In this document: positions 193 to 62,366 of the stretch, piece by piece | How the letters are laid out: every line of letters begins with the position of its first letter | Position numbering within the stretch: the first letter of the stretch is position 1 | Assembly: GCA_001782805.1 (NCBI GenBank) | Contig: MFPT01000021.1 | Span: 10,546-74,545, forward strand | Direction: 5' to 3' | Source: Candidatus Magasanikbacteria bacterium RIFCSPHIGHO2_01_FULL_41_23 | GTDB taxonomy: Bacteria; Patescibacteriota; Patescibacteriia; Magasanikbacterales; UBA922 | DNA length: 64,000 nucleotides | The notes under the pieces: model-generated | The model's database searches: none | Told to the model about the DNA's origin: nothing | What the model saw: the letters and a program-made list of their open reading frames with translations, nothing else | Made by a program: the position numbers and the translations under genes

Positions 193-3100
193 ATGAACTC
201 GCATCTCCGCTCCATGCTCGGACGACTGCAGTTATTGGCACAGAAAATTTGTCCCGCGTCGGGATCATCTTGGCGCACTCCGTGGATGGTATTTTTTGGT
301 ATATTGTTTTTGGGATTTTTTCTTTTAACCATTTCTCCGGCCAATGCTCAGTTCGAAACTGTAACCAATATTTTTATTATCGGCGCGGCGCATATTATGA
401 TTGTCGTCGCCAATATTGCCATTGGTTTAACTATTTTCTTTTTGCGTTTTTTCATCATGCTGGCCAGTTACAACAATTATATTGATGTTGACGTGGTGCA
501 ATTGGGCTGGATAATGGTGCGGGATGTGGCCAATATGTTTTTTGTCGTCGCGCTGTTGGTCATAGCCTTTGGCACTATTTTGGGTTTGGAAGAATATGAA
601 TGGAAAAAGAATTTGGTTAAACTTATTCTCGCCGCGATTTTAATTAATTTCAGCAATTTGATTTGCCAGCTGCTTATAGATGTTTCCCATGTTTTTAGCA
701 TTACTTTTTTGAATGCCATTTCGGCTACGGCCGGAGGCAATCTGATTAACATGTTCAAATTGGATCAAATAACGGCTTTGGCCGGTGCGGATGATACATC
801 GGGGATTGATATTGAATTGTTGGCCGCGGCTATACCGGCCATGATGTTCGCGCTTATGGCCGCGGCCGCGCTGGGATCATACGTGTATGTTATGGCGGCG
901 CGAGTGGTGGCATTGTGGGCTTTGATTATTTTTTCCCCGCTCGCTTTTATTTTTGGCGTTTTGCCCAAGACCAAAGGATATGCGGAAAAATGGTGGACTG
1001 AATTTAACAATAACATAATTGTCGTGCCGATAATGGTGTTTTTTTTGTGGCTGTCGTTTGCCACGTTGGGTTTGGGTAATATTGCGGAACAAATTCAAAC
1101 TGGTTTGCCCGCGGGTGTCCAGATAGATGGAGCGCAACAAGGTAAAACTGAATATAAGAAGACATCGTTATCATTATCCAAAGTAACCAGTTGGGAAAAT
1201 ATGGCCAGTTTTTTGGTTGCTTTTGCGTTTTTGATGCGCGGCATTCAAGAAACCGAACAAACCGGAGTTACTGGAGCCGGAGCCATCGGCTCGGCCGTGG
1301 ATTTTGCCAAAAAAGTCGGTACCATTGCCAGTGGGTATGCGGCGGGGAGATGGTTGGCGGGGAAGACGAGGGATGGAGTAGTTGGTGGATCCAAATGGGT
1401 GGGCAAAGAACTTGGTGTACATCTGGCCAAACGGGCCGGAGTTTACGATGTTCCCGAGCGAGTCGGTAATTGGTGGAAAGCCAGAGGCGTGGCATTTGAT
1501 AAACGAAGAAGCGAAGGTCCGCTTAGTGGTGTTGTCGATTCAAAAGAAGTAGGAGAAGGTGATCAAACTAAAGATGAAACGAAAAAATTGACCGATGAAC
1601 AAGTTAAGGCTGGTTGGTCAATGAGGTTTGATAGAGAAAAAAATAAAACTGTTGCCGAACAATGGGGTGTATTGAAAGATAAGGATGGAAATCCCAAATA
1701 CAAAAGTGGTTATCAAAAATTTCTCTCTCGTCGTCACGAAAAAATAATCGCTTCTCGCAAGACTTTGGAAAAAACCGAAGGAGAATTTAAAGATAATGAA
1801 GAATTAATGGGGAAGCGTACTGAGGCTCAGTCGTTTGTTACCGGTGCAGAAAGGAGAGAGAATAGAAAATTAGAAAAAGAAGGTTTTGTTGTCAAAGACT
1901 ATGATCGTGTCAAGCGTGGTATGCTTGAAATTGAAGAAGAACGGGCATCAGCAAAAACAGCCGAGTTTAAGAATAGAGGTAAAATGATTGCTCTTGGTAG
2001 CCAACGTCTAAAGGCAGAAGGAGGAAAACCTCTTGGTTTTCAAGAAGGCGGGACAGTTGCCGAGCAAATTGCGGGTCACAAAACCCGAGCGGAATTCTTT
2101 GAATCACGAGTTAACCAAATTCTCAAAACCGCAGAAAGTAAATATAAAGGCAGTGCAGCCGGTAAACGATTTTTGGAAGGAAAAATTCAAGCCGATTTGG
2201 AAATAAAGGCTCAAGAAGCAAAGACTAAAGAATTACAAGCAGGCGCCACGACGAGAATAGCTTTGACCGATACCACTGATGTTTTAGCGCGTACAATAGA
2301 GGCGGAAAAAGCCGCGCATTTAGAAGAACAAAGATTGGCAAGAGTCCAAAAAGCCGAAGAAAGAGAATTTTACAAAGGCGATCATGGCCAAGAAGAATTG
2401 CGTGAAGAAGCGGTTTTGAAAGAACAAATCGCGGCCAGTGAAGCGGGAATAAAAAAAGAAGAGGCTGAAGCCAAACGCGAAGTTGCTGAAGGTACAGGCA
2501 GTGGAGACGAAGCGAAAGAGCGAGAACACCTCTTTAAAGTAGCTCAAGACGAGAAAATCGCGGCGACAAAACAAGCAGGTGTTCGGGAATCTTTAGCGAC
2601 CAGTGTTGAAAAAAAGGCTGAATTGGTCTATGAGACATCAGACCCAGGTAAAGAAGAAAAAGAAAAAGAATTAACTGCCAAAGAAACCATTGCCGCCACC
2701 GAAGGAAAAATAAAGAAAGAAGAGGCTACTAGAAAAGCCGTACTTGCCACAGAAGACAGTAATGAATACAAGTTACAAATGGCGGAGAGGATTGCGGCGG
2801 AAAAAGGCGCAAAGTTGGAAGAGGGGAAGGTCGCGCTTGCAGAAAAAGAGGCCACCAAAGCGTATGTTTCTGGTACAGGTGCAGATACAATTACCCAAAC
2901 CAAAGAAGTTGAATTAAAAACAAAAGCCGAAGACGCGGAAATTAAACAACGTGAAGCCGAGGCAGACAGACAAGCGGCCAATAATTTAAAAGAAGTGTTT
3001 GCTAGAATCAATTTTTCGGAACAAGCAACAAAAGCGGCTGAAGATTTTGTAAAAAATATTAAAGAAGAAGACCTGAGAGATAAATTTAAATCAGCTTCTG

Positions 3101-5001
3101 AGCAAATGAAGGGATGGATGAAATTAGACGCCACGGCTTTGGCCACGGAAATTGAAAAATTTAAGACTGCCGGTCATACTCAAGGAATTGACGCGTATGT
3201 AGTGGCGTTGGGTCAAGCTCAATTGTTAAAAGTAACTACGAGTGATTCCGGTATTCGCCATAAACAAGCCGAGGATGCGGCGTCTGACGGTTTTGTGAAT
3301 AAATCTCGGTATGGAACCACTACTGCCTCAACTGCCTATTCTGATTTTTCCGATACCAAATTAAAGGATTATAAAAAACTGGAACGCACCGCCGCCATGA
3401 AAAAAGCCACCGATGTCCATGCTTTTTTAATGCACCAAAAAGAAAATTTGCCAGCGGGTCAAGAACTTGATCTTGATCAAACAGCGGAATTATATGCTGC
3501 CAGTTCTTATTTACAATCAGAAGCATGGAATGATGATCAGGCGGCGTATACATACTCTATGTTTGAAAAATTACAAAGACATCAAGCCGAAGTAGCGAAT
3601 AAAGGAAGTTCAACTGTCATGAAAACTGATGAAGCAGCACAGTGGACCACTATGGCGAAACAATATACTAGGTTGGGCTGGCTTGATAACAATGTTATTG
3701 ATGCTGGTGGTAATTTTGTATTGGATAATGAGAAAAAAGCAGATGGTACTGATGTCATTGATAAAACAAATGGAAAAGTAGTCAAAAAGGGGAAAGCCAT
3801 TGCCAAAAAATATACACGACAAAAAGCCGCGGATATGCAGAATTTAGCTGTTACAGGCGGTGATGTAAATTTAGTGGTTGCCCATCACCAAATTTCTGAA
3901 GCGGTTGATGCCAATGCTCGGGATGTTGAAAATGCTAAGCTTGAAGCAAGAAGTAGGATTATTGCGGATAAGAAAAGTGCTAATACAACATTAACAGACG
4001 AAACGGCCGCTGCATCGGCGGAAAAAGAAATTGAATCCGCAATGGCAGCTGCGGGTAAAGCTACAGCAAAAAATTATTGGGAATTGGCGGATGTTATTTT
4101 GAAATTAGGAACTAACACAACAGGCATCGTCGATGCTGCTGCTTTGAAAGTACGTTATGAAGAACATTCTGATTTGCTTCAAGACGCCACCAAATCATAC
4201 AAAGGTTTTGCACATGCCACCGGCCATGAAAAATTAGGTGGAAACCAAGGATTTGATGAAGAGGCTGATTCCTATCGTTTTATGACGGTAAGAGAGGGTC
4301 AGGCAGAAGTTCGGGCTGATCGGGTAAAAATGAAAACTCGCCAAATCTTAAATGGAGATCAGTATCATAGTAATGGTGGTGAATTAGATTTGGATACAGG
4401 GATAATTGATAATTTCTTGGAAGACACGCTTAATCTTACTATTGGTAAAATTACCCGATACCTTGATATGGTTGATATGCCTGAACGTTCTTTGAAAGGC
4501 GCGTTCTATTTACATAAAAATGAACAAGCAAAAGTAGTGCAAGGTACGGAAGGTGCTTTAAAAGATAAAAAAGTTGCGGTGTTGGGTGGAAATAAAGCCA
4601 TGCAAAAATTTGAAGCCGATGGTGATGTTGATGAAGAAAGTAAGACAAAGCATATGATGACACGTGGTGTTGTACCGGCTTTAATGTCAGGTCATAGAGG
4701 TTGGGCAGTCGCAGCCAGTAAATTATATGGCGGTCATGTTGTGGAGGCCGACGCTCAAAAAGGGACAATAAATATGCGGGTCGGTAATAAAGAATTTGCA
4801 ACTACGAAGAATGCGGCTGAACATGTTATTACTAATTTGGAATCAGATAAAGATTACTTTAAGGGTAGCGATCTTTATGGTCAAGAAAAAAGAATATTAG
4901 AGGCCATGAATCAGATTATCGCGGATTTTAATTCTGCACCTGCACCTGCATCTGCTGTTGATACTGCTGCTGCTGGTGAAGATGATACTCCTCCTACTTA
5001 A
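193..5001 (+). CDS. Giant polytopic membrane protein: N-terminal TrbL/VirB6-like multi-TM domain (~400 aa) plus a ~1200-aa K/E/A-rich low-complexity or coiled-coil C-terminal extension
   Basis: Uninterrupted 1602-codon ORF. The first ~330 aa carry 6-7 hydrophobic helices in a VirB6/TrbL-like layout. The rest is strongly biased to K, E, A, T and Q with EAK/KEE-type periodicity. It lies in one cluster with the PrgI-like and VirB4-like genes. Confidence 0.55.
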   Translation: MNSHLRSMLGRLQLLAQKICPASGSSWRTPWMVFFGILFLGFFLLTISPANAQFETVTNIFIIGAAHIMIVVANIAIGLTIFFLRFFIMLASYNNYIDVDVVQLGWIMVRDVANMFFVVALLVIAFGTILGLEEYEWKKNLVKLILAAILINFSNLICQLLIDVSHVFSITFLNAISATAGGNLINMFKLDQITALAGADDTSGIDIELLAAAIPAMMFALMAAAALGSYVYVMAARVVALWALIIFSPLAFIFGVLPKTKGYAEKWWTEFNNNIIVVPIMVFFLWLSFATLGLGNIAEQIQTGLPAGVQIDGAQQGKTEYKKTSLSLSKVTSWENMASFLVAFAFLMRGIQETEQTGVTGAGAIGSAVDFAKKVGTIASGYAAGRWLAGKTRDGVVGGSKWVGKELGVHLAKRAGVYDVPERVGNWWKARGVAFDKRRSEGPLSGVVDSKEVGEGDQTKDETKKLTDEQVKAGWSMRFDREKNKTVAEQWGVLKDKDGNPKYKSGYQKFLSRRHEKIIASRKTLEKTEGEFKDNEELMGKRTEAQSFVTGAERRENRKLEKEGFVVKDYDRVKRGMLEIEEERASAKTAEFKNRGKMIALGSQRLKAEGGKPLGFQEGGTVAEQIAGHKTRAEFFESRVNQILKTAESKYKGSAAGKRFLEGKIQADLEIKAQEAKTKELQAGATTRIALTDTTDVLARTIEAEKAAHLEEQRLARVQKAEEREFYKGDHGQEELREEAVLKEQIAASEAGIKKEEAEAKREVAEGTGSGDEAKEREHLFKVAQDEKIAATKQAGVRESLATSVEKKAELVYETSDPGKEEKEKELTAKETIAATEGKIKKEEATRKAVLATEDSNEYKLQMAERIAAEKGAKLEEGKVALAEKEATKAYVSGTGADTITQTKEVELKTKAEDAEIKQREAEADRQAANNLKEVFARINFSEQATKAAEDFVKNIKEEDLRDKFKSASEQMKGWMKLDATALATEIEKFKTAGHTQGIDAYVVALGQAQLLKVTTSDSGIRHKQAEDAASDGFVNKSRYGTTTASTAYSDFSDTKLKDYKKLERTAAMKKATDVHAFLMHQKENLPAGQELDLDQTAELYAASSYLQSEAWNDDQAAYTYSMFEKLQRHQAEVANKGSSTVMKTDEAAQWTTMAKQYTRLGWLDNNVIDAGGNFVLDNEKKADGTDVIDKTNGKVVKKGKAIAKKYTRQKAADMQNLAVTGGDVNLVVAHHQISEAVDANARDVENAKLEARSRIIADKKSANTTLTDETAAASAEKEIESAMAAAGKATAKNYWELADVILKLGTNTTGIVDAAALKVRYEEHSDLLQDATKSYKGFAHATGHEKLGGNQGFDEEADSYRFMTVREGQAEVRADRVKMKTRQILNGDQYHSNGGELDLDTGIIDNFLEDTLNLTIGKITRYLDMVDMPERSLKGAFYLHKNEQAKVVQGTEGALKDKKVAVLGGNKAMQKFEADGDVDEESKTKHMMTRGVVPALMSGHRGWAVAASKLYGGHVVEADAQKGTINMRVGNKEFATTKNAAEHVITNLESDKDYFKGSDLYGQEKRILEAMNQIIADFNSAPAPASAVDTAAAGEDDTPPT

Positions 5002-5022: not shown

Positions 5023-6276
5023 ATGGATACTACACCATTAAAGAATCTGATTGATTGGTATAAAAAATATTCTCTAAGACAGGGAGAGACTTTTATATTG
5101 GAATTTTTTGAAAAATCAAAAAATAAGTCTGACTCTCCAGTGAATAATTTAGAAAAAATTATTCGTAGTCTGGTTGAATTTGTCACTGAATCAAAAAAAA
5201 ATCCGGAAGAATTCTTTTTATTTCCAAATGACAAAATCATTATTAGTAGTCTTGCGACCGTTGACAAAGATTATATCCATTCTGTTGTGCCAGTTATGTG
5301 GTATGGTCTTGGTTTGCAAACCGGAGATTATGATTTGTGGGAACCGGAACAGATTATCAAAGAATGTGAAGAGGTTTTTTCCGGCGCGGTTGATAATGTT
5401 CCGGTTCTTATACGCAACATCCGCGAAGTCGGAAAGAACGAGGATGCTATAAATTTTTGCCAGAAATTTATTAACCAGTTTATTCTGCTTGATAAATGCA
5501 CAATAATCACAGAATTAAATTGGCATAATTCTTTGATAATAGCGATTGCGCTTAATACGGTATATGAACGACTATATCAGCTTTCCGAAGACGAGCAAAA
5601 AATTATTCTTCAACACAGTCTTTATGTCGCTTTGTGCGCGGGCATCAATGTGCAAACGAGTCTGCAGGCTGTCTTGTATCACACCAAAACTATTTTTAGT
5701 TTTATTGCCACGTATGAACGACTGACACAGATTTTAGAAGAAAGTAATGAAACGGTGATTCAAATTAATGAAAATTCTATTCAAACTCTGGGGAGTTTGT
5801 GGAATGATTATTGTGAAAAAAATAAAAATGATTGGTCGGATATAAAAAAATTAAAATTTTTTTCTGACAGTCTGACAACCAATGAATTTCAGAAAGAAAA
5901 AATATTTGCAGGTTTTAAGATACTCCTTGATCTTAAGACAGCGGTTTTGCAACAAAAAAATTACAGTGATGATTATAATGAATCCGAAGAGTTTCGCAAT
6001 GATGTCATTAAATTAATTTTTTGGTTTGGAATCGGTGACGCCGGTTACGATGATCTAAAAAAATATTTTCAACAGACAGAAAAAAAAGTTTCTATTACTG
6101 CTTTTGTAAAAAGGCTAGTTGAAATTATTGGTCTACAAGATATGGAACAAATTGAAAATGTACTTCTTTTTTCTGGATTACTTCGCGAATTAAACTGGAT
6201 GCCGGAAGATGACAACTTAATCAGTTTCCACGAATCCACCTCCCAATTCCATTGGAATCAAGAATTATTATCCTAA
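5023..6276 (+). CDS. Hypothetical protein, paralog of the next gene
   Basis: 417-aa ORF. Segment EQKIILQHSLYVALCAGINVQTSLQAVLY aligns with EQQFILQHYFYYAIIMGVPVQSWLNVAF of the downstream ORF. A second shared block is WFGIGDAGYDD vs WYGNDAQGNQY. No recognisable family. Confidence 0.6.
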   Translation: MDTTPLKNLIDWYKKYSLRQGETFILEFFEKSKNKSDSPVNNLEKIIRSLVEFVTESKKNPEEFFLFPNDKIIISSLATVDKDYIHSVVPVMWYGLGLQTGDYDLWEPEQIIKECEEVFSGAVDNVPVLIRNIREVGKNEDAINFCQKFINQFILLDKCTIITELNWHNSLIIAIALNTVYERLYQLSEDEQKIILQHSLYVALCAGINVQTSLQAVLYHTKTIFSFIATYERLTQILEESNETVIQINENSIQTLGSLWNDYCEKNKNDWSDIKKLKFFSDSLTTNEFQKEKIFAGFKILLDLKTAVLQQKNYSDDYNESEEFRNDVIKLIFWFGIGDAGYDDLKKYFQQTEKKVSITAFVKRLVEIIGLQDMEQIENVLLFSGLLRELNWMPEDDNLISFHESTSQFHWNQELLS

Positions 6277-6277
6277 T

Positions 6278-7222
6278 ATGCCCGCTCCATTATTTTCCTA
6301 TTGCCAAAATAATCCGCTCAAAAATGTCTCTGCTTTGGAGCGGCTTATTATGGCAGTTGAGCCTAGTGCGATTACGGATACCGCGCTTAGTGGTGTCGTG
6401 GAATACGCGGCTTTGATTCTTTCCGGTTTGCGCGATTTGGAACCGCGCGGATTGGCCGACAGTTATGTTACGCAAGTTTTGGGATTTATTGACACAAAAC
6501 TTGTGGAGCAAGTGGCGACTGATCCAGCCAAATCCGCGAGTAATGATCTCAATGAATTGGCAGTGGAATTGCTCCACTCTGCGGCCGCGATTGGCGTGGT
6601 GGAAGAAATTACGCCGTATACGGTTGAAGAATTGACCGAGATTATCAACAGTTCTGACGTTGATTTTAATCATGCTATTTTGGCCTTCACTATTGGCTAC
6701 GCGATTGTGAGTGGAGAAAAAGATTATGGATCTCTATTAATGCACATTCTCATGAATCATAAAGATGAAGAATTGCAAACGCCATACGAATGGATGGATG
6801 CGTTTTTGCTCGGTTTATTAATTCATAGTGCGTGGAGTTATTTTCCCGATGCCACGGATCGTGAACAGCAATTCATACTCCAACATTATTTTTATTATGC
6901 CATTATCATGGGCGTGCCGGTACAAAGTTGGTTGAATGTGGCGTTTGCTGCCAATCCCAAATTATTGCCGCATATATTGATGCAAAAATTAAGCAGTTCG
7001 CAAGAAGTGATTCCGGAGAATTCCGGATTAAGCAGTAGTGCGGATTTTGCCAATGTCATACGCGATTATATGTCTGCAGTCAATCAAAATTCCATTCCCA
7101 CTTTGGCCGCGGAAAAATTTTTGGGCAAATGGTATGGCAATGACGCGCAGGGAAATCAATATCGTCTATGGTTGCGCGCCGCGCTTGGTACTGCCTATCG
7201 TTTGCAAACGCGGAATTTGTAA
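6278..7222 (+). CDS. Hypothetical protein, tandem paralog of 5023..6276
   Basis: 314-aa ORF starting 2 nt after the previous stop. Shares a ~60-aa conserved core with the upstream gene. Confidence 0.6.
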   Translation: MPAPLFSYCQNNPLKNVSALERLIMAVEPSAITDTALSGVVEYAALILSGLRDLEPRGLADSYVTQVLGFIDTKLVEQVATDPAKSASNDLNELAVELLHSAAAIGVVEEITPYTVEELTEIINSSDVDFNHAILAFTIGYAIVSGEKDYGSLLMHILMNHKDEELQTPYEWMDAFLLGLLIHSAWSYFPDATDREQQFILQHYFYYAIIMGVPVQSWLNVAFAANPKLLPHILMQKLSSSQEVIPENSGLSSSADFANVIRDYMSAVNQNSIPTLAAEKFLGKWYGNDAQGNQYRLWLRAALGTAYRLQTRNL

Positions 7223-7273
7223 TGCGATTTTTTTGTGATATACTTCAATTAATTTAATTTTAAAAGGAGGGAT

Positions 7274-7777
7274 ATGAATTACAATCAAAATAATTTTGCT
7301 TTTATTGACAGCCAAAATTTACATTTTGGAATTTTGGAACAAGGTTGGAAGATTGATTATCGAAAATTTCGTAATTATTTAAGGAATAAATACGATATTA
7401 CAAAAGTTTTTATGTTTATGGGGTATTTACCCTCAGAACAAGCTTTATATACATTTCTTAGACAATCAGGGTTTACGTTAATCTTCAAACATGTGTCTAA
7501 GTTACTTGACGGTTCGGTAAAAGGTAATTGCGACGGTGAGATGATTTTACAAGCTATGATAGAGTATCCGAATTATCACCAAGCTTTGCTCATTACAGGG
7601 GATGGGGATTTTGTATGTTTGATAAAATATTTACAAAAACAGAATAAATTGTTGCAAGTAATTGCTCCAACATTAGAAAATTGTTCTAAATTTATTCGTG
7701 AAGTTGCCGGTAAAAAATTATTGTTTTTTAACGATTTACAATCAAAATTGTCATATAAAGACAAAAAGACCCTATAA
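7274..7777 (+). CDS. NYN-domain (LabA-like / DUF88) putative RNase
   Basis: Motifs FIDSQNL near the N-terminus, GNCDGEMI and ITGDGDF match the PIN-like NYN domain acidic residues. AGGAGG RBS 6 nt upstream of the ATG. Confidence 0.65.
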   Translation: MNYNQNNFAFIDSQNLHFGILEQGWKIDYRKFRNYLRNKYDITKVFMFMGYLPSEQALYTFLRQSGFTLIFKHVSKLLDGSVKGNCDGEMILQAMIEYPNYHQALLITGDGDFVCLIKYLQKQNKLLQVIAPTLENCSKFIREVAGKKLLFFNDLQSKLSYKDKKTL

Positions 7778-7887
7778 AGACAAAACAGTATAGGGGCATT
7801 CTTGCTGGGAAGGACCATACAAAGACAAAACAGTGTACAGGATATTCCCTCATGATTACTTTCTAAAGTATACAACACTACAAATAG

Positions 7888-8956: not shown

Positions 8957-9385
8957 ATGCAACAATTTGTTGTTCCACAATTTATTGAAGTGGAAGATAA
9001 AATTTTCGGGCCGATTACGACTCGGCAATTTTTAATTTTATTGGCCGCGGGCACAGCCATATTTTTGTCGTATCGGTTTGGCGATTTGGCTTTATTTATT
9101 TTTACGGTTGTTTTTGTCGGCGGTTTTTCCGCGATTTTGGCTTTTGTAAAAGTGAATGGTCAAAATTTTCATTATTTTTTGCTGAATATTATACAAACCA
9201 TGCGCAAACCATCATTGCGCATTTGGCAAAAAAGTTACAATAAAGAAGAACTGAATTATTTGCGCAAGCGCGATGCCGATATTAAAATAGAGCCGCTCAT
9301 CGTGGTCACAGCAGTAAAAAAAGATCGGATTCGCGACTTGGCTCTGTTGGTTAATACGGGCGGTTTTTACAAGCCCGAGGAATAG
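8957..9385 (+). CDS. PrgI-family (VirB3-like) small membrane protein of Gram-positive-type conjugation / T4SS systems
   Basis: The N-terminus VPQFIEVEDKIFGPITTRQFLILLAAG matches the PrgI-family signature (VPK..ee.KIFG.T.RQ followed by two TM helices). It lies immediately upstream of the VirB4-like ATPase, as PrgI lies upstream of PrgJ. Confidence 0.65.
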   Translation: MQQFVVPQFIEVEDKIFGPITTRQFLILLAAGTAIFLSYRFGDLALFIFTVVFVGGFSAILAFVKVNGQNFHYFLLNIIQTMRKPSLRIWQKSYNKEELNYLRKRDADIKIEPLIVVTAVKKDRIRDLALLVNTGGFYKPEE

Positions 9386-9403: not shown

Positions 9404-10093
9404 ATGTCTGACGAAAAAATGAGAAAAAAAACCAAAAAACGGCCTTCATCACAGGCTCATTTGCCCATCGCGGAAATCAAAGACAGCGTGGTGATTTTAA
9501 AAGACGGCACATTGCGCGCGGTTATTTTGGTTTCCAGTTTGAATTTTGCTCTAAAATCCGAAGATGAACAAAATGCGATTATTTCCGCGTACGTTGGTTT
9601 TCTTAATTCACTGGATTTTCCAATTCAAATTGTAGTCCAATCGCGCAAATTGCAAATCAAACCCTATTTGGAAAAATTGCAGGGGATTGAACGGACACAA
9701 ACCAATGAATTGTTGCGCATCCAAACCGCGGATTATCGCGCGTTTGTGGAAGAGTTGGTGGAGATCGGGCAGATTATGACCAAACGTTATTATGTCATTG
9801 TGCCCTATGATCCGCTGAATAATCGGCGCAAGAATTTTTGGGCACGATTTAAAGAAGCGCTTAAACCGGGAATTACCATTCGTTTGCGTGAAGAGCGATT
9901 TCAGACACGCAAAAGTGAAATTGATTTGCGTTTGCGTCACATTATTGGCGGACTGTCCGGCATGGGACTCACCACAGTTCAGCTGGATACGCAATCTTTG
10001 ATTGAATTATATTATTCCACTTACAATCCGGATATCGCTTTTGCCGAAACATTGGGCACGATTGGCGATCTCCAAATTGAAGATATTTCATAA
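9404..10093 (+). CDS. VirB4/TraC-type ATPase, N-terminal domain (separate ORF; frame differs from the ATPase domain ORF)
   Basis: IKDSVVILKDGTLRAVILVSSLNF resembles the conserved N-terminal 'IxDGiixtkdGslxrvievepin' region of VirB4/TrbE/PrgJ. The stop at 10093 is followed 2 nt later by the ATG of the ATPase-domain ORF in another frame. Confidence 0.55.
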   Translation: MSDEKMRKKTKKRPSSQAHLPIAEIKDSVVILKDGTLRAVILVSSLNFALKSEDEQNAIISAYVGFLNSLDFPIQIVVQSRKLQIKPYLEKLQGIERTQTNELLRIQTADYRAFVEELVEIGQIMTKRYYVIVPYDPLNNRRKNFWARFKEALKPGITIRLREERFQTRKSEIDLRLRHIIGGLSGMGLTTVQLDTQSLIELYYSTYNPDIAFAETLGTIGDLQIEDIS

Positions 10094-10095
10094 GT

Positions 10096-11955
10096 ATGCC
10101 ATTTAAACCCATTGCCACCAATAAAAAAGGAATCAGTTCGGCAGCGCCGGACATTGAGAAAAAAAAACTGCAAAAAGAATTGATTACTTTGGAAGAAGAA
10201 CGGGTGTATCGCGAAGGCACGGTGGCCATTCGCGATTTGGTCGCGCCGTCCGCACTATCGGTTCAGTCCAATTTTGTGCAATTGGGCACGACTTTTTTGC
10301 GTACGATTTTTGTGATTACGTATCCGCGTTATATGTCAGTCGGCTGGAGTTCGCCGATTTTAAATTTAAATTTGACCATGGATTTGGCTATGTTTTTTTA
10401 TCCGGTCAATTCGGAAATTATTTTAAAACAGCTCAAGAAAAAAGTTGGCGCGCTGGAAGCGCAATTGTCCGGTGACGCGGAAAAAGGCGCGGCGCGTGAT
10501 CCGTTGCGCGAAACTGCTTTGCGCGATATTGAACAACTGCGCGATGATTTAACGCAAGGCGTGGAACATTTTTTTCAATTTGCTTTTTACGTTACGCTTT
10601 ACAGCCAAGACAAAAAAGAATTGGATAAAGTTACGGAAGACATTCAGAATATTTTTGGTTCCAAATTAATTTACAGCAAAAATGTTTTGTATCAGGCCGA
10701 ACAAGGTTTTACTTCAACGTTGCCGCTGGGGATTGATGAGTTGACGATTTCTTTTAACATGAATTCCTCGCCGATCGCGGCCTCGTTTCCGTTTATTTCC
10801 TCGGAATTAAGCAGTGATGATGGAATTTTGTATGGCATCAATCGCCATAATAACAGTTTAATTTTGTTTGATCGTTTTTCTTTGCAAAATGCCAATATGG
10901 TGGTTTTTGCCACTTCCGGAGCGGGAAAATCTTATGCTATTAAATTGGAAGTTTTGCGTAGTTTAATGATGGGAACTGACGTGATTGTGATTGATCCGGA
11001 AATGGAATATGAGCATTTGGCCGAGGCGGTTGGCGGAACTTATATCAGTATTTCTTTGGCTTCGGAAAGCAAAGTCAATCCGTTTGATTTGCCGCGTCCG
11101 GTTGGTCAGCAAATTTCCACCGAAGATATTATTCGCAGCGCAGTAATTACGATGAAAGGTTTGTTGCGGATTATGTTTGGCACACTGACGCCGCAGGAAG
11201 ATTCAATTTTGGATCGCGCGCTTTTGGAAACGTACGCGAAAAAAGACATTACAGCTACAGTTGATCTGACCACAGTCGAGCCGCCGATTATGCAGGATTT
11301 GCTGGATATTTTGGAAGGCATGACGGGCGCGGAAGTATTGGTTTTAAAATTGCGCAAATATACCGAAGGCACGTTTGCCGGATTATTCAATTCTCCGACC
11401 AATGTGAATGTGACCAATCAATTGGTTATTTTTAGCGTGCGTGATTTGGAAGATGAATTGCGGCCAATGGCGATTTATACGTTGGTGAATTATATTTGGA
11501 ATTTAGTTCGTTCCGAACAAAAACGGAGAATTTTGATTATTGATGAAGCGTGGTGGCTTATGAGTCACGAGGATTCGGCCAAATTCATTTACGCGCTCGT
11601 GAAGCGTTGTCGCAAATATTATTTGGGTGTGACGACCATTACCCAGGATGTGAATGATTTTTTACGTTCGCCATACGGACAGGCGATTGTAACCAATTCG
11701 GCTTTGCAACTTTTGCTCCGTCAATCACCCGCGGCCGTGGATATGATTCAACGCGTGTTTATGTTGACCGAAGGAGAAAAATATTTGCTTTTGGAAGGCG
11801 CGGTCGGTGAAGGCATATTTTTTGCCGGCAATAAACACGCGGCCATCAAAGTCGTGGCGTCTTATACCGAAGATCAACTCATCACGTCTGATCCCAAACA
11901 ATTATTGGAAATTGAAAAAGCCAAAAAAGAATTTGAAGAACAAATGGGAAAATAA
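10096..11955 (+). CDS. virB4: VirB4/TrbE/PrgJ-like T4SS ATPase, central and C-terminal ATPase domains
   Basis: Walker A VVFATSGAGKSYAIK and Walker B ILIIDEAWWLM. The architecture resembles VirB4/CagE/TraC. Together with the upstream ORF it gives ~848 aa, a typical VirB4 length. Confidence 0.75.
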   Translation: MPFKPIATNKKGISSAAPDIEKKKLQKELITLEEERVYREGTVAIRDLVAPSALSVQSNFVQLGTTFLRTIFVITYPRYMSVGWSSPILNLNLTMDLAMFFYPVNSEIILKQLKKKVGALEAQLSGDAEKGAARDPLRETALRDIEQLRDDLTQGVEHFFQFAFYVTLYSQDKKELDKVTEDIQNIFGSKLIYSKNVLYQAEQGFTSTLPLGIDELTISFNMNSSPIAASFPFISSELSSDDGILYGINRHNNSLILFDRFSLQNANMVVFATSGAGKSYAIKLEVLRSLMMGTDVIVIDPEMEYEHLAEAVGGTYISISLASESKVNPFDLPRPVGQQISTEDIIRSAVITMKGLLRIMFGTLTPQEDSILDRALLETYAKKDITATVDLTTVEPPIMQDLLDILEGMTGAEVLVLKLRKYTEGTFAGLFNSPTNVNVTNQLVIFSVRDLEDELRPMAIYTLVNYIWNLVRSEQKRRILIIDEAWWLMSHEDSAKFIYALVKRCRKYYLGVTTITQDVNDFLRSPYGQAIVTNSALQLLLRQSPAAVDMIQRVFMLTEGEKYLLLEGAVGEGIFFAGNKHAAIKVVASYTEDQLITSDPKQLLEIEKAKKEFEEQMGK

Positions 11956-12185: not shown

Positions 12186-12788
12186 ATGATGACTCTCCGC
12201 AAACGCATTTTTATCATTAACATTATCGTTACGGCCATAATTTTGGCAATTTTTTTGTATTTGGTATATGGTCGCGAATCTGACACTAGTATAATAACTT
12301 CTGACAGCGAATCCGAAACATCGCCTACAGCGCCAAAAACCATTACCAATCAAGATAAAACCAACATAACAAAACCAGCCATCGCCAAACCGATTTTAGC
12401 TTTGCCGGCGTATTCCGAAGAATTATACGTCCGTCAACTAGCCAAAATTTTTGTGGAACGTTTTGCCAGTTATTCCACGCAAAATGATAATAATAATATC
12501 ACTGATTCACTTGATTTGGCGACAGTTAGTATGCAAACTTGGATGAAAACACAGCTAAAGCCGGGAAGTCGAGATTATGAAGGCGTGGTAACTCAAGTTC
12601 TGGCTTCTTCGGTTAAAGAAAAAACCGCTTCCAGCGCCACTGTTGACTTGCAAATTCAACAAAATTTTGAACAAAAAACCGCCACAGCCGTTGGCGCTAC
12701 GCAAAAAGAAATGCGTCAAAAAAAAGGAACGGTTAAATTGCTTAAAATTGGCGATCAATGGAAAATTGATGGTCTGTATTGGGAATAA
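12186..12788 (+). CDS. Hypothetical membrane-anchored protein (N-terminal TM helix; possible NTF2-like / VirB8-like periplasmic domain)
   Basis: 200-aa ORF. The N-terminus RKRIFIINIIVTAIILAIFLYLVY is a single TM helix. The remainder is soluble and ends in a beta-rich region. Size and topology resemble VirB8-type proteins, but there is no sequence-level proof. Confidence 0.45.
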   Translation: MMTLRKRIFIINIIVTAIILAIFLYLVYGRESDTSIITSDSESETSPTAPKTITNQDKTNITKPAIAKPILALPAYSEELYVRQLAKIFVERFASYSTQNDNNNITDSLDLATVSMQTWMKTQLKPGSRDYEGVVTQVLASSVKEKTASSATVDLQIQQNFEQKTATAVGATQKEMRQKKGTVKLLKIGDQWKIDGLYWE

Positions 12789-12804
12789 TAGTATGAAGGA
12801 GGGG

Positions 12805-13467
12805 ATGAAAAAACTAACTGATTTTTTACTGGATTGCGTATTTCCTTATTTTTGTTTACAATGCGGCGCATCTGATGTTTATTTTTGCTTTCTTTGTCGA
12901 CAAGCCGATTGGTTTAAAAATCCGACGGGAATTTTTGTGCATGGCAACGAGATTGATTCTTCCTTAACTCGAATCATCAGTTTGACTAAATATAATTCGG
13001 AAGTTGACGCGGCACGACTGATTGAGGATTTTAAATATGGTTTTATAAATCAGGCCAGTACGGAAATTAACGTCTGGCTAAAAAATACCGCGTGGTTAAA
13101 TAAAGAAATCGCAGATTGTGATTTAATAATTCCCGTGCCACTGCATCGCCGTCGTTTTGCCGAACGAGGATTTAATCAAGCGGAAATTATTGCCGGTTTT
13201 ATGAGTACGATTATACATCGTCCGATTGATTTTTTGTCTTTAATTCGTGCTAAATCAACCAAACAACAAGCCAAACTGGGTCGCGAAAAACGACTGAAGA
13301 ATGTGATTGACGCCTTTGTCTGCAAAAATAAAGAAAAAATTGTCGGCCAAAATATTTTGTTGGTTGACGATGTGTACACCACCGGCGCTACATTGGAGGA
13401 ATGCGCTAAAGTTTTATTGGCGACGGGCGCGAAAAATGTTTCCAGTTTTACTTTGGCTCACGGCTAA
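12805..13467 (+). CDS. comFC: ComF-family protein (ComFC-like phosphoribosyltransferase, competence-associated)
   Basis: N-terminal Cys-rich zinc-finger-like region (CLQCG..CFLCRQ). PRTase motif ILLVDDVYTTGATL near the C-terminus. GGAGG RBS 5 nt upstream of the ATG at 12805. The ORF track extends the frame upstream to 12643, which overlaps the previous gene. Confidence 0.7.
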   Translation: MKKLTDFLLDCVFPYFCLQCGASDVYFCFLCRQADWFKNPTGIFVHGNEIDSSLTRIISLTKYNSEVDAARLIEDFKYGFINQASTEINVWLKNTAWLNKEIADCDLIIPVPLHRRRFAERGFNQAEIIAGFMSTIIHRPIDFLSLIRAKSTKQQAKLGREKRLKNVIDAFVCKNKEKIVGQNILLVDDVYTTGATLEECAKVLLATGAKNVSSFTLAHG

Positions 13468-13485: not shown

Positions 13486-14244
13486 TTAATTATATTGTGC
13501 CTCAACACTGCAATGTTTGCCATTGCCGATTATCACATGATCGATCAAATGAATTCCCATTATTTTGCCGGCGGCAATCAGTTGTTCGGTTATTTCTATA
13601 TCAGCCGCGCTGGGAGTAACAATTCCCGATGGATGATTGTGTACCAAAATTACAGCCGCGGCTCCGTATTCCACGGCTGGTTTAAATACTTCGCGCGGAT
13701 GGATCAAATTGGCATTGATTGTGCCAATCGATAAAACTTCATCATGAATTACGCGATAATGAGAATTTAAATAAATGCCGCGCAGATGTTCTTTGGGCAA
13801 GCGTTCCATATCGCGCGCATAATTAAATACATCTTTGGCTGTGCGCACCATTGTCAATCCGCTTTTATTTTTTTGGAAAAAGCGTCGACCAAGTTCACCA
13901 CATGCTACGATCTGCGCGGCTTTGTGAATGGGAATTTCCAAGTCTGTTGCCAGCGTGGCCGGATTGGTTTGGGCGGACAATGCTCGCTCGCCATATTCCT
14001 TGACTACGCGCGCTGACATCGCCAATACATCTTCTTTTGTAGAGCCGGTGTTAATAATTACTGCCAAAAGTTCTTGTACGGTCAAATTGCTTGGACCATA
14101 TTTGAGCAATTTTTCGCGCGGTTTGTCTTCGCTGGGCATGTCTTTGATGCGCAAAAAATACGTACGACCACTGGACAAAGCATCGGCTTCCAGCAAAATC
14201 AAACCGGTTTCGGGAATTGTATACGTATTCGTTTGAATATTCAT
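13486..14244 (-). CDS. radC: RadC-family (JAB/MPN domain) DNA repair protein
   Basis: HhH-type N-terminal region. JAMM-like motif VHNHPSG. C-terminus AADIEITEQL. Typical UPF0758/RadC architecture. Confidence 0.8.
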   Translation of the reverse strand: MNIQTNTYTIPETGLILLEADALSSGRTYFLRIKDMPSEDKPREKLLKYGPSNLTVQELLAVIINTGSTKEDVLAMSARVVKEYGERALSAQTNPATLATDLEIPIHKAAQIVACGELGRRFFQKNKSGLTMVRTAKDVFNYARDMERLPKEHLRGIYLNSHYRVIHDEVLSIGTINANLIHPREVFKPAVEYGAAAVILVHNHPSGIVTPSAADIEITEQLIAAGKIMGIHLIDHVIIGNGKHCSVEAQYN

Positions 14245-57545: not shown

Positions 57546-60500
57546 ATGACTGATTTTGTCCATCTTCATGTCCACTCGCATTATTCGCTCTTGAATGGCT
57601 TAACCAAAATAAAAGCCTTGGTTAAGGCGGCGAAAGCGCGGGGATTTTCCGCTTTAGCATTGACTGATTATGGATCAATGTATGGCGCTATTGAATTTTA
57701 TCAAGCGTGTTTGGCCGAAGGAATTAAACCGATTATTGGATTTGAAGCATACATTGCTCCACGAAGTAGACTTGATAAAGATCCGGCGCATGATTCGACA
57801 TTGTATCATTTAATATTACTCGCGGAAAATTATAATGGCTATAAAAATTTAATGAAGCTGTCGTCGTTTGGCCATTTGGAAGGATTTTTTAATGGGAAAC
57901 CACGCATTGATAAAGAATTGTTGCGGAAATATCATGAAAATATAATTGTTTTGTCCGGACCGATTGAAGGCGAAATTCCCACATTAATAAAAAATGGTGA
58001 GATTGCCAAAGCCAAAGCAGTGGCGCGGGAATATCAAGAAATGTTCAGTTCGACTTCGCTCACCGCGAGTGGATCGGATTATTTTTATTTGGAATTGGAA
58101 GATCATCCGGCAATCTCCGGCCAAATTGAAGTGAATACTAAATTAATTGAATTGGGAAAAGAATTGGGAATTCCGTTGGTGGTAACGCGTGATGTACATT
58201 ATTTAAATCCGGATGATGATGAGGCGCAAGATATTTTGCGTTGTATTGCCGAAGGTTGGCGCGTGGATCAGCCGAATAGAATTGATTATCGCGGCGTTGA
58301 TCGGTCGTTCGCGACTGGCGATGATATTGCCGCGCGTTTTCGGCATGTTCCGGAAGCAATTGCCAATACGATAAAAATTGCGGAGCGTGTGAACATTCAA
58401 ATAGAATTAAACAAATGGCATTTTGCGCCAGTGGAATTACCTCCGGGCAAAACTGCGGACGATGTTTTGGCCGAAGAAGCACATAATCGCGTTACGATTT
58501 ATTTTAAAGAAAAAACGGCTGAACTTACTGAACGTTTGAATTATGAATTGGAAATTATTAAAACAAAAAAATATTCGCCGTATTTTTTGTGCGTGGCGGA
58601 TTTTGTGCGTTATGCCAAAGATCATGGGATTGTGGAATCAACGCGTGGTTCAGCCGCTGGTTCATTGGTGTCGTATGTTATGGGAATTACGACTGTGGAT
58701 CCGATGCGATTTAATTTGCCGTTTGAACGATTTTTAAATCCGTTTCGTCCCAGTCCACCGGATGTGGATACGGATTTTGCCGATGATCGTCGCGATGAAA
58801 TGATTGAATATGTCACGAAAAAATATGGCGCGGATAAAGTGGCGCAAATTATTACGTTTGGAACTATGGCCGCGCGCGCCAGTGTGCGCGATGTTGGTCG
58901 TGCTTTGGGATTCGCGTATTCTTTTTGCGATCAAGTGGCCAAATTAATTCCGCAAGGCGCGCAAGGTTTTCCCATGACGATTGGTCGCGCACTGACGGAA
59001 GAACCGGATTTGAAAAAATTATATGAACAAAACGCGGATGTAAAACGTTTGTTGGATTTGGCGCGAAAAGTTGAAGGCTGTGCGCGGCATACTTCCATTC
59101 ATGCGGCCGGAGTGGTGATTGCGCCGACCGCGCTGATGGATTTTTCGCCCGTGCAATATGAAACCGGTGGCACGCGGATTACCACGCAATATGAAATGAA
59201 ATCCGTGGAAGCGGCCGGAGTTTTAAAAAATGATTTTTTGGGAATTCGCAATTTGGCGATTTTGGGAAACGCGGTGGAATTCGTGAAAAAAACCACGGGT
59301 CAAGAAATTGATATTTATAATTTACCGTTGGACGATGCCAAAGTTTATGAAATGTTGGCGCGCGGAGAAACGATGGGTGTTTTTCAGCTTGGTGGTTCGG
59401 GTATGACGCGCTGGCTAAAAGAACTGAAACCAAACCGGATTGAAGATATTATGGCCATGGTGGCGCTGTATCGTCCTGGACCAATGGAATCTATTCCCGA
59501 ATATATTCGCCGCAAATATAATCCTGAGGCGGTAAAATTTTTTGATTCGCGGTTGGAAAAAATTCTCGGCGCTTCGTATGGATTGTTGGTATATCAAGAC
59601 GATGTGATGTTGACTGCGATCGCACTCGCTGGTTATGATTGGATGGAAGCGGATAAGTTTCGCAAAGCCATGGGCAAAAAAATTCCCGAAGAAATGGCCA
59701 AACAAAAAGAACAATTTTATAAAGGTTGTCAGGAAATAGGCAAAGTAAAAAAAGATATTGTTGATGAAATTTGGCATGCGATTGAACCGTTTGCCGCGTA
59801 TGGGTTTAATAAATGTTTGGTAGGAGAGACTGAAATTGTGGACGCGGCAACCGGAGCAATAAGAACCATCAAGGAAATGTACGAGCAAAAATCGAGGATG
59901 TCGGTATTAAGTTTGTCGGGCTATAAGAAATTAATTAAAAGAAAAATAATTGATATCTATAAAAACGGGAAGAAGCCAGTGTGGGAAATTACTATTCGCA
60001 GTGGCCGGAAAATTACTGCCACGGGCAATCATCCCTTTTTAAAATTTGGCGGCTGGTTCAATTTAGAAAAATTATGTGTCGGTGATTTGATCGCCGTACC
60101 AAGAAAAATTGACTATCGGCCGAGTGCTGATTTAGATTCTAAAAAATTAAAAGTATTGGGCTATTTGTTATCAGAAGGAAATCTCTGTCATCCTTACGGC
60201 GTTTATTTTTATTCTTCAGTCGAGGTAGAAATCCAAGATTTTATTACCGCTGTAAAATCATTTTCTAATTCTAATGTTACGATTAATAGAAGTAAAAGCG
60301 CAGCAGCTGTCTATGTGGGGCAAATCAATCCCAAATTTAGGAACAATTTAATGTTGTGGCTTAAAGAGCTGGGTTTGTATAACAAAAAAGCCACGGAAAA
60401 ATTTATTCCCGAATTTATTTTCAAATTATCACCGGAAAAAATCGCAGTGTTGGTTGGATCGATGTGGCAGGGCGATGGCTGTGTACATGATGACAAAAAT

Positions 60501-62366
60501 GGGCAAATATATTACGCGACCAGTTCAGAAAAGTTAGCTCAGCAAATGCAACACTTACTTTTGCGGTTGGATATTTTGAGTACGATTTATACCAAAAAAT
60601 TTACTTATAGGAATGGCCTAAAAATTGGTTATACGATTAATATCAGCCGTTATAATAACTTGGCCAATTTTGCGCACACGGTGGGTCAACATTTATTGCC
60701 AAACAAAAAAATCATCTTGAATAATATTATTAAAAAAAATAAAATTCTGAATGGCACACTACACACTGGCGTGGCTCGAGGCAGTAAAGATGTTGTGCCG
60801 GCACAAATTTTGGAGTTGATAAGAAAAGAGTTGGGGCAGAAAGGAATAACCATAAAGACAATATCCCAAGAATTGAAAATAGCTGAAAGATTATTTTATC
60901 AAGATACAAAACGGAAAGGCTATTTGCGGGAGACAGTTGGGAAAATCGGCATCTATTTGAAAAGCACTAAATTGTTACAGGAAGCGCGTTCAGAATTGTA
61001 TTGGGACGAAATTGTTTCGATAAAGTCGCGGGGCATGCAAGAAACCTATGATTTGACTGTCCTAGGCGAACATAATTTTGTCGCCAATGATTTCGTGGTG
61101 CATAATTCGCATGCCGCCAGTTATGGCATTGTCGCTTATCAAACCGCGTATCTCAAAGCGCATTATCCGGTGCAGTTTATGACCGCCATTTTGCAAGCCG
61201 AAGCCAGTGATTTGGAAAAAGTGGCGGCCATTGTGTATGAGTGCGGACGCATGGGCATTGAAGTTTTGCCGCCGGACATCAATGAAAGTTTTAAAAGTTT
61301 TGCGATGGTTTCCAAACCCGGACTCCTCGACCCTGCTCAGGGTAAACCCGGTCGGATTCGGTTTGGTTTAAATGCGATTAAAAATGTCGGCGAACATATT
61401 TGTGAAGTTATTTATCGCGAACGCAAAGAACATGGCGCGTATCAATCTCTGGAAAATTTTTTGGAGCGAATTACGGATAAAGATTTGAATAAAAAATCAT
61501 TGGAAAGTTTAGTCGTGGCCGGAGCGCTGGATTGTTTTGGATTTGATCGCAACGTACTTTTTGCCAACAGCGAAAATATGTTATTTTTTTACCGACAAGC
61601 GCGCGACAGGGAATTGACCAAACAAGATTCATTGTTTGCGGCCACGGATATTAGTTTGGATTCCAAAGTAATGCTTAAGCCAGCGCCGAACGCGACGATG
61701 GAACAGAAATTAACTTGGGAAAAAGATTTGTTGGGATTATATTTGTCCGCGCATCCGTTGCATCCATTCGTGGATGCGTTAAAAGGTGTGGTGATTCCTT
61801 TAGCCGAAGTGGAATCTGCGCCGCGCGACAGTTGGGTCGTATGTTTTGGTGTGGTGGAATCCATCAAGAAAAAAATTACTAAAAAAGGCGATATGATGTT
61901 GTTTGTGGTAATTCAGGATTTGTCCGCCACAATGGAACTGTTGGTTTTTCCCAAGACGTACGCGCGCACCAAAGATCTGTGGTTGGAACGCGCGCTGATT
62001 TGTATTGTGGGGAAAACGCCGCGCGAAGAAGGAGAAAATAAAATTTTTGTGGAAAATGCCTATGAATTGCGGCGTGAAACTATTTCCGACTTGGCGCGGC
62101 AACTGGCATTATCCGTAGGGCAGAAATTAAATTCCGACGTTGGTGCCGTGCCCGAAAAATATCTGCGCATTATTTTGTCCGCGGATGAATTACAAACATC
62201 AGCCGAACCAATTAAAACCATTTTGGCCACGCATCCAGGAGATACGACGGTTTATTTGCAAGTAGGAACAGGTACGATTAAAGTGGGAACTAAAGTGAAT
62301 GCGAGCGAAGAACTTTTGTCCGAGTTGATTAAAATTTTAGGAGATGCAAAAGTTGAAATGTTTTGA
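57546..62366 (+). CDS. dnaE: DNA polymerase III alpha subunit (DnaE) interrupted by a full-length intein
   Basis: PHP domain HLHVHSHYSLL. Pol IIIalpha core motif FAAYGFNK / SHAASYGIVAYQTAYLKAHYP is split by the intein. OB-fold at the C-terminus. Carries an in-frame short GC-rich repeat (peptide KPGLLDPAQGKPG). Confidence 0.9.
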   Translation: MTDFVHLHVHSHYSLLNGLTKIKALVKAAKARGFSALALTDYGSMYGAIEFYQACLAEGIKPIIGFEAYIAPRSRLDKDPAHDSTLYHLILLAENYNGYKNLMKLSSFGHLEGFFNGKPRIDKELLRKYHENIIVLSGPIEGEIPTLIKNGEIAKAKAVAREYQEMFSSTSLTASGSDYFYLELEDHPAISGQIEVNTKLIELGKELGIPLVVTRDVHYLNPDDDEAQDILRCIAEGWRVDQPNRIDYRGVDRSFATGDDIAARFRHVPEAIANTIKIAERVNIQIELNKWHFAPVELPPGKTADDVLAEEAHNRVTIYFKEKTAELTERLNYELEIIKTKKYSPYFLCVADFVRYAKDHGIVESTRGSAAGSLVSYVMGITTVDPMRFNLPFERFLNPFRPSPPDVDTDFADDRRDEMIEYVTKKYGADKVAQIITFGTMAARASVRDVGRALGFAYSFCDQVAKLIPQGAQGFPMTIGRALTEEPDLKKLYEQNADVKRLLDLARKVEGCARHTSIHAAGVVIAPTALMDFSPVQYETGGTRITTQYEMKSVEAAGVLKNDFLGIRNLAILGNAVEFVKKTTGQEIDIYNLPLDDAKVYEMLARGETMGVFQLGGSGMTRWLKELKPNRIEDIMAMVALYRPGPMESIPEYIRRKYNPEAVKFFDSRLEKILGASYGLLVYQDDVMLTAIALAGYDWMEADKFRKAMGKKIPEEMAKQKEQFYKGCQEIGKVKKDIVDEIWHAIEPFAAYGFNKCLVGETEIVDAATGAIRTIKEMYEQKSRMSVLSLSGYKKLIKRKIIDIYKNGKKPVWEITIRSGRKITATGNHPFLKFGGWFNLEKLCVGDLIAVPRKIDYRPSADLDSKKLKVLGYLLSEGNLCHPYGVYFYSSVEVEIQDFITAVKSFSNSNVTINRSKSAAAVYVGQINPKFRNNLMLWLKELGLYNKKATEKFIPEFIFKLSPEKIAVLVGSMWQGDGCVHDDKNGQIYYATSSEKLAQQMQHLLLRLDILSTIYTKKFTYRNGLKIGYTINISRYNNLANFAHTVGQHLLPNKKIILNNIIKKNKILNGTLHTGVARGSKDVVPAQILELIRKELGQKGITIKTISQELKIAERLFYQDTKRKGYLRETVGKIGIYLKSTKLLQEARSELYWDEIVSIKSRGMQETYDLTVLGEHNFVANDFVVHNSHAASYGIVAYQTAYLKAHYPVQFMTAILQAEASDLEKVAAIVYECGRMGIEVLPPDINESFKSFAMVSKPGLLDPAQGKPGRIRFGLNAIKNVGEHICEVIYRERKEHGAYQSLENFLERITDKDLNKKSLESLVVAGALDCFGFDRNVLFANSENMLFFYRQARDRELTKQDSLFAATDISLDSKVMLKPAPNATMEQKLTWEKDLLGLYLSAHPLHPFVDALKGVVIPLAEVESAPRDSWVVCFGVVESIKKKITKKGDMMLFVVIQDLSATMELLVFPKTYARTKDLWLERALICIVGKTPREEGENKIFVENAYELRRETISDLARQLALSVGQKLNSDVGAVPEKYLRIILSADELQTSAEPIKTILATHPGDTTVYLQVGTGTIKVGTKVNASEELLSELIKILGDAKVEMF
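59814..61106 (+). mobile_element. Intein (431 aa) with LAGLIDADG/DOD homing-endonuclease domain, inserted in the conserved GFNK|SHAA motif of DnaE
   Basis: Starts with Cys (CLVGETEIVD), ends with ..VVHN, and is followed by Ser (+1). LAGLIDADG-like blocks LKVLGYLLSEGNL and IAVLVGSMWQGDG. The extein junction reconstitutes GYGFNKSHAASY. Confidence 0.85.

Follow-up and report, generated by a model that had tools for sequence, protein, structure and literature searches.

A pair of ancient paralogues at a fixed position in a Patescibacterial type IV secretion-like cluster, with an accessory NYN nuclease gene inserted beside it

Patescibacteria encode chromosomal MPF-FATA-like type IV secretion systems (T4SSs) that comprise VirB6-like, PrgI/VirB3, TrsD and VirB4 proteins, with neither a relaxase nor a type IV coupling protein (T4CP) encoded nearby, and in the class ABY1 these loci co-localise with comF, recG and radA (PMC12102498; PMC10633639). 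In Southlakia epibionticum the VirB6-like proteins SEML1_0013 and SEML1_0011, encoded just upstream of PrgI-TrsD-VirB4 (PMC10633639), carry C-terminal ARM-repeat domains according to structure-based annotation (Wang et al. 2023, PMC10633639, Table S2), so that alpha-solenoid modules on VirB6-like proteins have a precedent in Patescibacteria. Genes without a profile were left unannotated in these publications (PMC12102498; PMC10633639). Here we analyze a stretch of 64,000 nucleotides (the window) from Candidatus Magasanikbacteria bacterium RIFCSPHIGHO2_01_FULL_41_23 (contig MFPT01000021.1, positions 10,546 to 74,545), which contains the same module, again with comF, recG and radA and with no relaxase or T4CP found. 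The cluster type is already known; two adjacent genes within it, here called A and B, and a gene C following them are not described in the Patescibacteria T4SS literature searched, nor are the family, paralogy, fold and rate behavior of A and B. Profile comparisons indicate that A and B are ancient paralogues, they occupy a fixed position in related clusters, and the gene for a predicted NYN-domain nuclease next to them lies outside the conserved unit. The features concerned are as follows.

5023..6276, + strand: gene A, the A-type paralogue, 417 aa, with a predicted B-like all-alpha domain (residues 1 to ~313) and a C-terminal extension
Within A: C-terminal extension, with helices at residues 320-389 and a beta-hairpin at 400-411 carrying SFHESTSQFHWN in the AlphaFold2 (AF2) model
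5596..5682, + strand: best-conserved family motif in A (EQKIILQHSLYVALCAGINVQTSLQAVLY); its B counterpart lies at ~6866-6952
6278..7222, + strand: gene B, the B-type paralogue, 314 aa, beginning 1 nt past the A stop
7274..7777, + strand: NYN-domain (PIN-like) predicted nuclease, 167 aa, between B and C

The initial annotation had given the positions of these three open reading frames (ORFs), the 1-nt spacing between A and B and the peptides it quoted from the three translations correctly. It had also proposed that A and B share a core of about 60 amino acids and go back to an old duplication. A BLASTP comparison of the two window proteins aligned 116 residues with E=5e-7, showing that their similarity is not due to chance. 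Alignment of small family profiles with hhalign gave E=1.8e-5, and large profiles built from 83 B-type and 63 A-type sequences aligned with a probability of 100% and E=1.9e-63 over 323 columns; B 1-314 was placed on A 1-313. A hidden Markov model (HMM) derived from B-type sequences alone matches all 63 A-type proteins (64 bits for the window A), a neighbor-joining tree contains one clade with 81 of the 83 B-type and none of the 63 A-type sequences, and one A-type and one B-type gene per locus are found in 11 of the 11 loci in which both positions are visible in the DNA. Taken together, these results argue for an old duplication, as proposed, which spans the full length of B. Judged by these comparisons, A and B are ancient full-length paralogues, A being composed of a B-like domain and a C-terminal extension of about 100 amino acids. 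The similarity described as a core is real, but homology covers B in its entirety.

Two sequence blocks had been quoted in support of the shared core. The first proved to be the best-conserved motif of the whole family, with the consensus Q-x-[FL]-L-L-Q-N-Y-F-Y-x-A-I-V-x-G-V-P-V-R in the motif columns of all 146 family members. The second pair, WFGIGDAGYDD of A and WYGNDAQGNQY of B, is not homologous and was wrongly matched: hhalign aligns B 285-298 (WYGNDAQGNQYRLW) to A ~283-293, the A peptide (residues 343-353) falls within the A-specific C-terminal extension, and BLASTP instead matched the second block of B to A 90-106.

When B, A or a 7-sequence alignment of B served as the query, word-indexed homologue searches returned only 2-5 proteins. 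The impression of a tiny family was overturned when an HMM profile of five B sequences was searched exhaustively, which detected 191 clusters (50% identity) at E<=1e-3 and 140 at E<=1e-10. The set of 146 members used here contains 83 B-type proteins of ~310-340 aa, which end in ...WLRE.L..., and 63 A-type proteins of ~400-510 aa, which end in [IL]xFHExDGxFHWN. This A-type motif is present at the C-terminal end of the window A (SFHESTSQFHWNQELL) and absent from B. The A-family HMM, whose alignment includes the window A, matches this protein with E=3.5e-87, and B is 100% identical to a database hypothetical protein of Candidatus Magasanikbacteria RIFCSPHIGHO2_01. All named members belong to Candidatus Magasanikbacteria or are labelled 'Patescibacteria group bacterium'. 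The window A and B have no family match in Pfam, NCBIfam, PHROGs or PADLOC, the other 144 members gave only 1-2 scattered chance matches to Pfam, and PDB profile searches with A and B found no sequence relatives (best E at least 0.019). What the initial annotation had said by eye, that no family is recognizable, is thus upheld in these databases, and the homology search it had suggested assigned A and B to no housekeeping or other known family. As far as its sequences tell, the A/B family is restricted to Patescibacteria and undescribed.

The position of A and B was compared across about 14 distinct related loci. A metagenome scan with a subset alignment gave six loci and a genome contig scan two. 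Wherever it is visible, the gene order is giant, A, B, C, PrgI/VirB3, TrsD, VirB4, bitopic protein and ComF (L001, L003, L004, L005, L008/L009, L011/L014, L013, L017 and L018; partially L002, L010 and L012), and it is kept down to ~73% identity of VirB4 and ~22% identity of B. A homologue of the giant is found at the same position in the related loci whose upstream end is visible, and ComF is kept in those whose downstream end is visible. The gap between A and B measures 1-6 nt in eight of ten loci. These nine genes, from the giant to ComF, form the conserved unit. Its other members in the window, and the convergent gene at its end, are as follows.

193..5001, + strand: giant protein, 1602 aa, with an N-terminal signal-like segment, 6 hydrophobic helices and ~1300 hydrophilic, K/E-rich residues
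7903..8922, + strand: gene C, conserved soluble protein of ~339 aa; its ORF opens at TTG 7888
8957..9385, + strand: PrgI/VirB3-like membrane protein with transmembrane (TM) segments (PF12666, E=2.5e-10, 41.2 bits against a cut-off of 27)
9404..10093, + strand: TrsD-like protein, similar to the VirB4 N-terminus (NCBIfam TrsD, E=5.2e-5)
10096..11955, + strand: VirB4-family ATPase (PF19044, E=2.3e-29, 102.7 bits; AAA_10, E=1.1e-10, 41.6 bits)
12186..12788, + strand: bitopic protein (D200), 200 aa, with one N-terminal TM helix, present in every locus
12643..13467, + strand: ComF-type phosphoribosyltransferase (PF00156), with the likely true start near 12793
13486..14244, - strand: RadC/JAB protein (PF04002, E=1.5e-40), convergent, marking the end of the cluster

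The PrgI, TrsD and VirB4 proteins and the VirB6-like giant bear out the placement of A and B inside a T4SS-like cluster that had been made in the initial annotation. Hydropathy peaks of the giant lie at residues 32-293 (6-7 hydrophobic helices); its match to the TrbL/VirB6 Pfam family is weak and does not reach the cut-off of 25.9 bits (E=0.0025, 18.1 bits), and its positional counterpart in a locus from JGI matches PF04610 TrbL. The giant is read as a putative extended VirB6/TrbL-like membrane domain with a hydrophilic tail. The ORF at 9404-10093 matches VirB4 N-terminal NCBIfam models with E=6.6e-10, the TrsD and VirB4 N-terminal matches all being below the curated cut-offs, and homologues of this TrsD-like protein carry PF26593 TraC-like. 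That 9404-11955 might be a VirB4 gene split by a frameshift was considered and rejected, the arrangement being the TrsD plus VirB4 one described for Patescibacteria. The bitopic protein could be a VirB8 analogue. For gene C no Pfam or PDB relative was found, and its comparison with the A family (hhalign probability 0.8%) led to its rejection as a third paralogue. A Pfam scan of window ORFs of at least 110 aa revealed neither a relaxase nor a VirD4-type T4CP, and no array of VirB2-like pilins adjoins the cluster among the window ORFs scanned, small ORFs not having been searched exhaustively.

Several loci have additional genes or labels of their own. A JGI contig (3300072015) contains a gene of the bAvd / 23S_rRNA_IVP family, an accessory of diversity-generating retroelements, between the bitopic gene and ComF, and in L007 (4696-6738) alone a gene for a 680-aa protein with SH3 and SLT transglycosylase domains (VirB1-like) lies between B and C. 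L003 and L004 (CAYYQC010000007.1 and CAZHNI010000019.1), whose VirB4 proteins are 89% and 75% identical to that of the window, are contigs of metagenome-assembled genomes titled 'uncultured Gammaproteobacteria' and have a Patescibacteria-type cluster; these titles are probably taxonomic mislabels. The remainder of the window is ordinary chromosome with TopA, a MurE-like ligase, DprA, Der, Pth, RecG, RadA, ClpB, PheS/T and DnaE. The DnaE (Pol III alpha) gene at 57546-62366 harbors an intein with a LAGLIDADG homing-endonuclease domain, and an AbiEii-type nucleotidyltransferase toxin gene (type IV toxin-antitoxin system) is located at 62585-63250, near the window end.

A hydropathy scan detected neither a TM helix nor a signal peptide in A and B. 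They were rejected as membrane proteins, their maximum 19-residue hydropathy (1.39 and 1.33) being below the threshold of 1.6 used. Both are acidic, with isoelectric points of 4.8 (A) and 4.6 (B) and ~4.8 in all 146 members. The fold prediction suggested in the initial annotation yielded a confident AF2 model for A from the 63-sequence alignment (pLDDT 92.4, pTM 0.84), which is all-alpha with ~20 helices and ends in a beta-hairpin carrying the C-terminal motif. The AF2 model of B from 5 sequences was poor (pLDDT 54) and was left out of the fold searches. Foldseek found no significant match for the A model in PDB and BFVD, and its nearest structural neighbors are ARM/HEAT-type solenoids. In this respect A resembles, by description only, the helical repeats tied to VirB6-like proteins in Southlakia; those domains are, however, fused to polytopic membrane proteins, whereas A and B are predicted to be free-standing and soluble.

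The conserved residues of the family are mostly aromatic or structural, together with Glu and Arg, and no catalytic constellation is recognizable among them; nor was a nucleic-acid-binding or enzymatic motif found in A or B. A metal site in the C-terminal hairpin of A is unlikely because neither of its two His residues is conserved across the family.

A and B are the most rapidly diverging genes of the cluster. Between L001 and L003, identity is 99% for VirB4, 96% for TrsD, 94% for PrgI, 80% for C, 75% for the bitopic protein, 56% for B and 28% for A, and similarity of the DNA is lost from the hydrophilic part of the giant through A to the first half of B. Between the window and L002 the NYN proteins are 83% identical, B 66% and A 25%. 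In addition, A varies in length: L008 (8473-9849) and L009 (2277-3779) are otherwise 100% identical and differ by an in-frame indel of 126 nt (42 aa) in A, and the protein P0005 has a deletion of 61 aa relative to the window A, to which it is otherwise 99% identical. These variants suggest a length polymorphism at the population level or assembly variants. The GC content of A in the window is 33%, compared to 44% for B. A is AT-richer than B in ten of 11 loci, by 1-18 GC points and by at least 7 points in seven loci; low GC is therefore a trait of the A family, and a recent acquisition of the window A was rejected as its cause. The AT-richness could stem from amino-acid composition, relaxed selection or repeated replacement.

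The initial annotation had suggested, from the tight spacing, that A and B form a three-gene operon with the NYN gene. The NYN domain itself is confirmed by PF01936 (residues 10-132, E=1.2e-14; 55.5 bits, curated gathering threshold 24.2), the closest solved relative of the predicted nuclease is PDB 2qip (VPA0982, E=4.6e-10), and a PADLOC NYN model matches with E=5.8e-8. As in other NYN/LabA-like PIN-fold nucleases, the acidic motifs are intact (IDSQN with D12, NCDGE with D87, GDGDF with D110 and D112). D87, D110 and D112 are invariant in five homologues, and D12 is present in the four full-length copies and missing in the truncated copy of L005. The window protein differs from these relatives in standing alone, its 167 aa being fused to neither an OST-HTH nor any other domain, and in belonging to a subfamily of Patescibacteria that recurs inside T4SS clusters. 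Two features flank the gene.

7217..7273, + strand: AT-rich spacer before NYN with a promoter-like TTGTAA-16-TATACT, TG extension and a strong ribosome-binding site (RBS) AAAGGAGGG; consensus matches only
7752..7837, + strand: direct repeats across the NYN stop, with 28-nt copies at 7765-7792 and 7810-7837 (86% identity) and a third, partial copy

The co-occurrence analysis suggested in the initial annotation showed that A, B and NYN form no consistent trio: the NYN subfamily is present in only five of the ~14 distinct loci, in three different positions, and absent from nine. Three loci (the window, L002 and L012) have it 3' of B. In L005 a copy that has lost its N-terminus, and with it the first catalytic motif, separates A from B, and in L007 the gene is found beside a Bro-N gene on the upstream side of B. 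No NYN gene occupies an equivalent position in L001, L003, L004, L008, L010, L011, L013, L014, L017 and L018, and the B-to-C junction measures 0-15 nt in loci without an NYN insertion. The window gene has a GC content of 29.2% compared to 44-47% in its neighbors, and in all five loci NYN is 7-20 GC points below B. It may be expressed from its own putative RBS and promoter-like site. NYN is thus an AT-rich accessory gene that was repeatedly inserted in the A-B-C interval and lies outside the conserved unit; as a passenger it is probably mobile. The three-gene operon is therefore unsupported, and a misleading lead has been removed, NYN being an optional insertion.

The sequence AAAGACAAAACAGT occurs twice in the repeats at the NYN stop of the window, compared to 0.01 occurrences expected, and this direct repeat was not found in related loci. 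Target-site-like duplications flanking NYN were looked for in the window, L002, L005 and L012, and only short repeats came to light. Junction duplications are present only in L007 (1-3700), in which an element of ~150 nt occurs in six copies. Each joins an A-type gene 3' end to a GC hairpin and ~5 CGAAATNN octamers. The A-type 3' end encodes ..FHWNDALI[SN]GEEKTMEIAK*, and upstream of B the copies bracket an unknown ORF of 137 aa, NYN and Bro-N. The arrangement resembles the outcome of serial cassette insertion duplicating the A|B junction. Relatives of NYN were not matched in phages. Those on plasmids have less than 60% identity (27.8-29.1% among the ten matches listed), and in the two records examined they are orphan genes without T4SS neighbors.

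For A and B we lean, with modest confidence, towards a reading in which the ancient paralogues fixed in the T4SS cluster are likely a cytoplasmic scaffold or adaptor pair and NYN stands outside their unit. The two proteins, which are predicted to be translationally coupled and are held between the VirB6-like giant and the C-PrgI(VirB3)-TrsD-VirB4 module, would form a cytoplasmic hetero-oligomer, probably a heterodimer, that serves the T4SS-like machine of Patescibacteria as scaffold or adaptor. This complex could bind to the hydrophilic region of the giant, to the TrsD-VirB4 ATPase or to both, with the terminal F-x-E-x-x-G-x-F-x-W hairpin of A as the putative docking element, and it could take over the recruitment role where a coupling protein or relaxase is not found nearby. 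The fast divergence and the in-frame indels of A suggest co-evolution with variable partners, which may be the variable region of the giant, substrates or the host.

Adaptors of such a kind are known from other T4SSs. IcmS/IcmW/LvgA-DotL of Legionella and CagF/CagZ of Helicobacter are small to medium-sized, acidic, soluble and hetero-oligomeric substrate-recruitment adaptors encoded with their machine, and they act via a VirD4-type coupling protein. A and B share with them the acidity, the predicted solubility and the location of their genes, but no sequence or fold similarity was detected, and a VirD4-type coupling protein was not found here.

Several points weigh against the scaffold or adaptor role. 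The heterodimer and the docking are deduced from paralogy, gene coupling and fold class, and the fold of B from its alignment to A, its own model being poor. Core machine subunits are normally better conserved than A. The hydrophilic domain of the giant may face the inside or the outside of the cell, so that a cytoplasmic contact with A and B is uncertain. Finally, in one locus, the JGI contig 3300072015, A is followed by a gene of 428 aa instead of the typical B and C (annotation only).

In the main alternative, A and B would themselves be translocated substrates of the T4SS, i.e., effectors, tip or host-interaction factors exported without a Sec signal, the hairpin of A serving as secretion or docking signal and an arms race with the host driving divergence. 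Such proteins would be expected to lack a signal peptide in spite of being encoded in a secretion cluster and to diverge fast, as A and B do; the length polymorphism of A and the location of its motif at the extreme C-terminus also fit, Patescibacteria T4SSs have been proposed to export proteins in published work, and helical-repeat folds are common in T4SS effectors. Effectors, however, usually vary in number and location, whereas one A and one B occur at a fixed position with predicted translational coupling in all 11 loci in which the DNA shows both positions; moreover, B has no C-terminal motif and diverges about as much as ComF and the bitopic protein do. We regard export of the pair as rather unlikely.

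Somewhat more doubtful is the possibility that A and B constitute a variable specificity module, a hyper-evolving and exchangeable pair that is exported or gates export and sets the host or substrate, with the A|B junction as an insertion hotspot recruiting accessory genes such as NYN. If this were true, A and B would decide on which host or substrate the machine acts.

Equally doubtful is a cytoplasmic role unrelated to secretion, for example in DNA processing or regulation alongside ComF, RadC, DprA and RecG, with the synteny to the VirB4 genes being coincidental, in which the cluster would be a DNA-uptake apparatus and A and B would handle incoming DNA. ComF always follows the cluster, RadC, DprA, TopA, RecG and RadA are nearby in the window, and comF, recG and radA are noted at ABY1 T4SS loci in the literature. 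The strongly acidic character of A and B fits a nucleic-acid mimic or protein binding, but not direct binding of DNA. The lack of nucleic-acid-binding or enzymatic motifs and the mostly aromatic or structural nature of the conserved residues speak against this role, as does the location of A and B, which is between the VirB6-like and VirB3-like genes and not beside ComF.

A functional trio of A, B and NYN, for example a toxin-antitoxin-like or defence system within the cluster in which A and B would regulate the nuclease or confer immunity to it, is very improbable: in the window and L002 the three genes follow one another on one strand, the subfamily lies within the A-B-C interval in all five loci that have it, and the PADLOC NYN model matches, but neither A nor B is matched by any PADLOC model, the position, GC content, truncated copy and putative expression signals of NYN are at odds with a trio, and its co-occurrence pattern, with nine of the ~14 loci keeping A and B without it, largely refutes one.

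The A/B family can be defined by HMM and may be used to annotate many genes now called 'hypothetical'. Few machines besides the T4SS have been demonstrated to be essential to Patescibacteria living as epibionts in culture. As this group lacks the usual coupling protein and relaxase, the substrates and their route of recruitment have to be sought elsewhere. As a putative scaffold or adaptor pair, A and B are tangible candidates for a layer in the cytoplasm that provides recruitment or specificity in the lineage of Magasanikbacteria sampled here.

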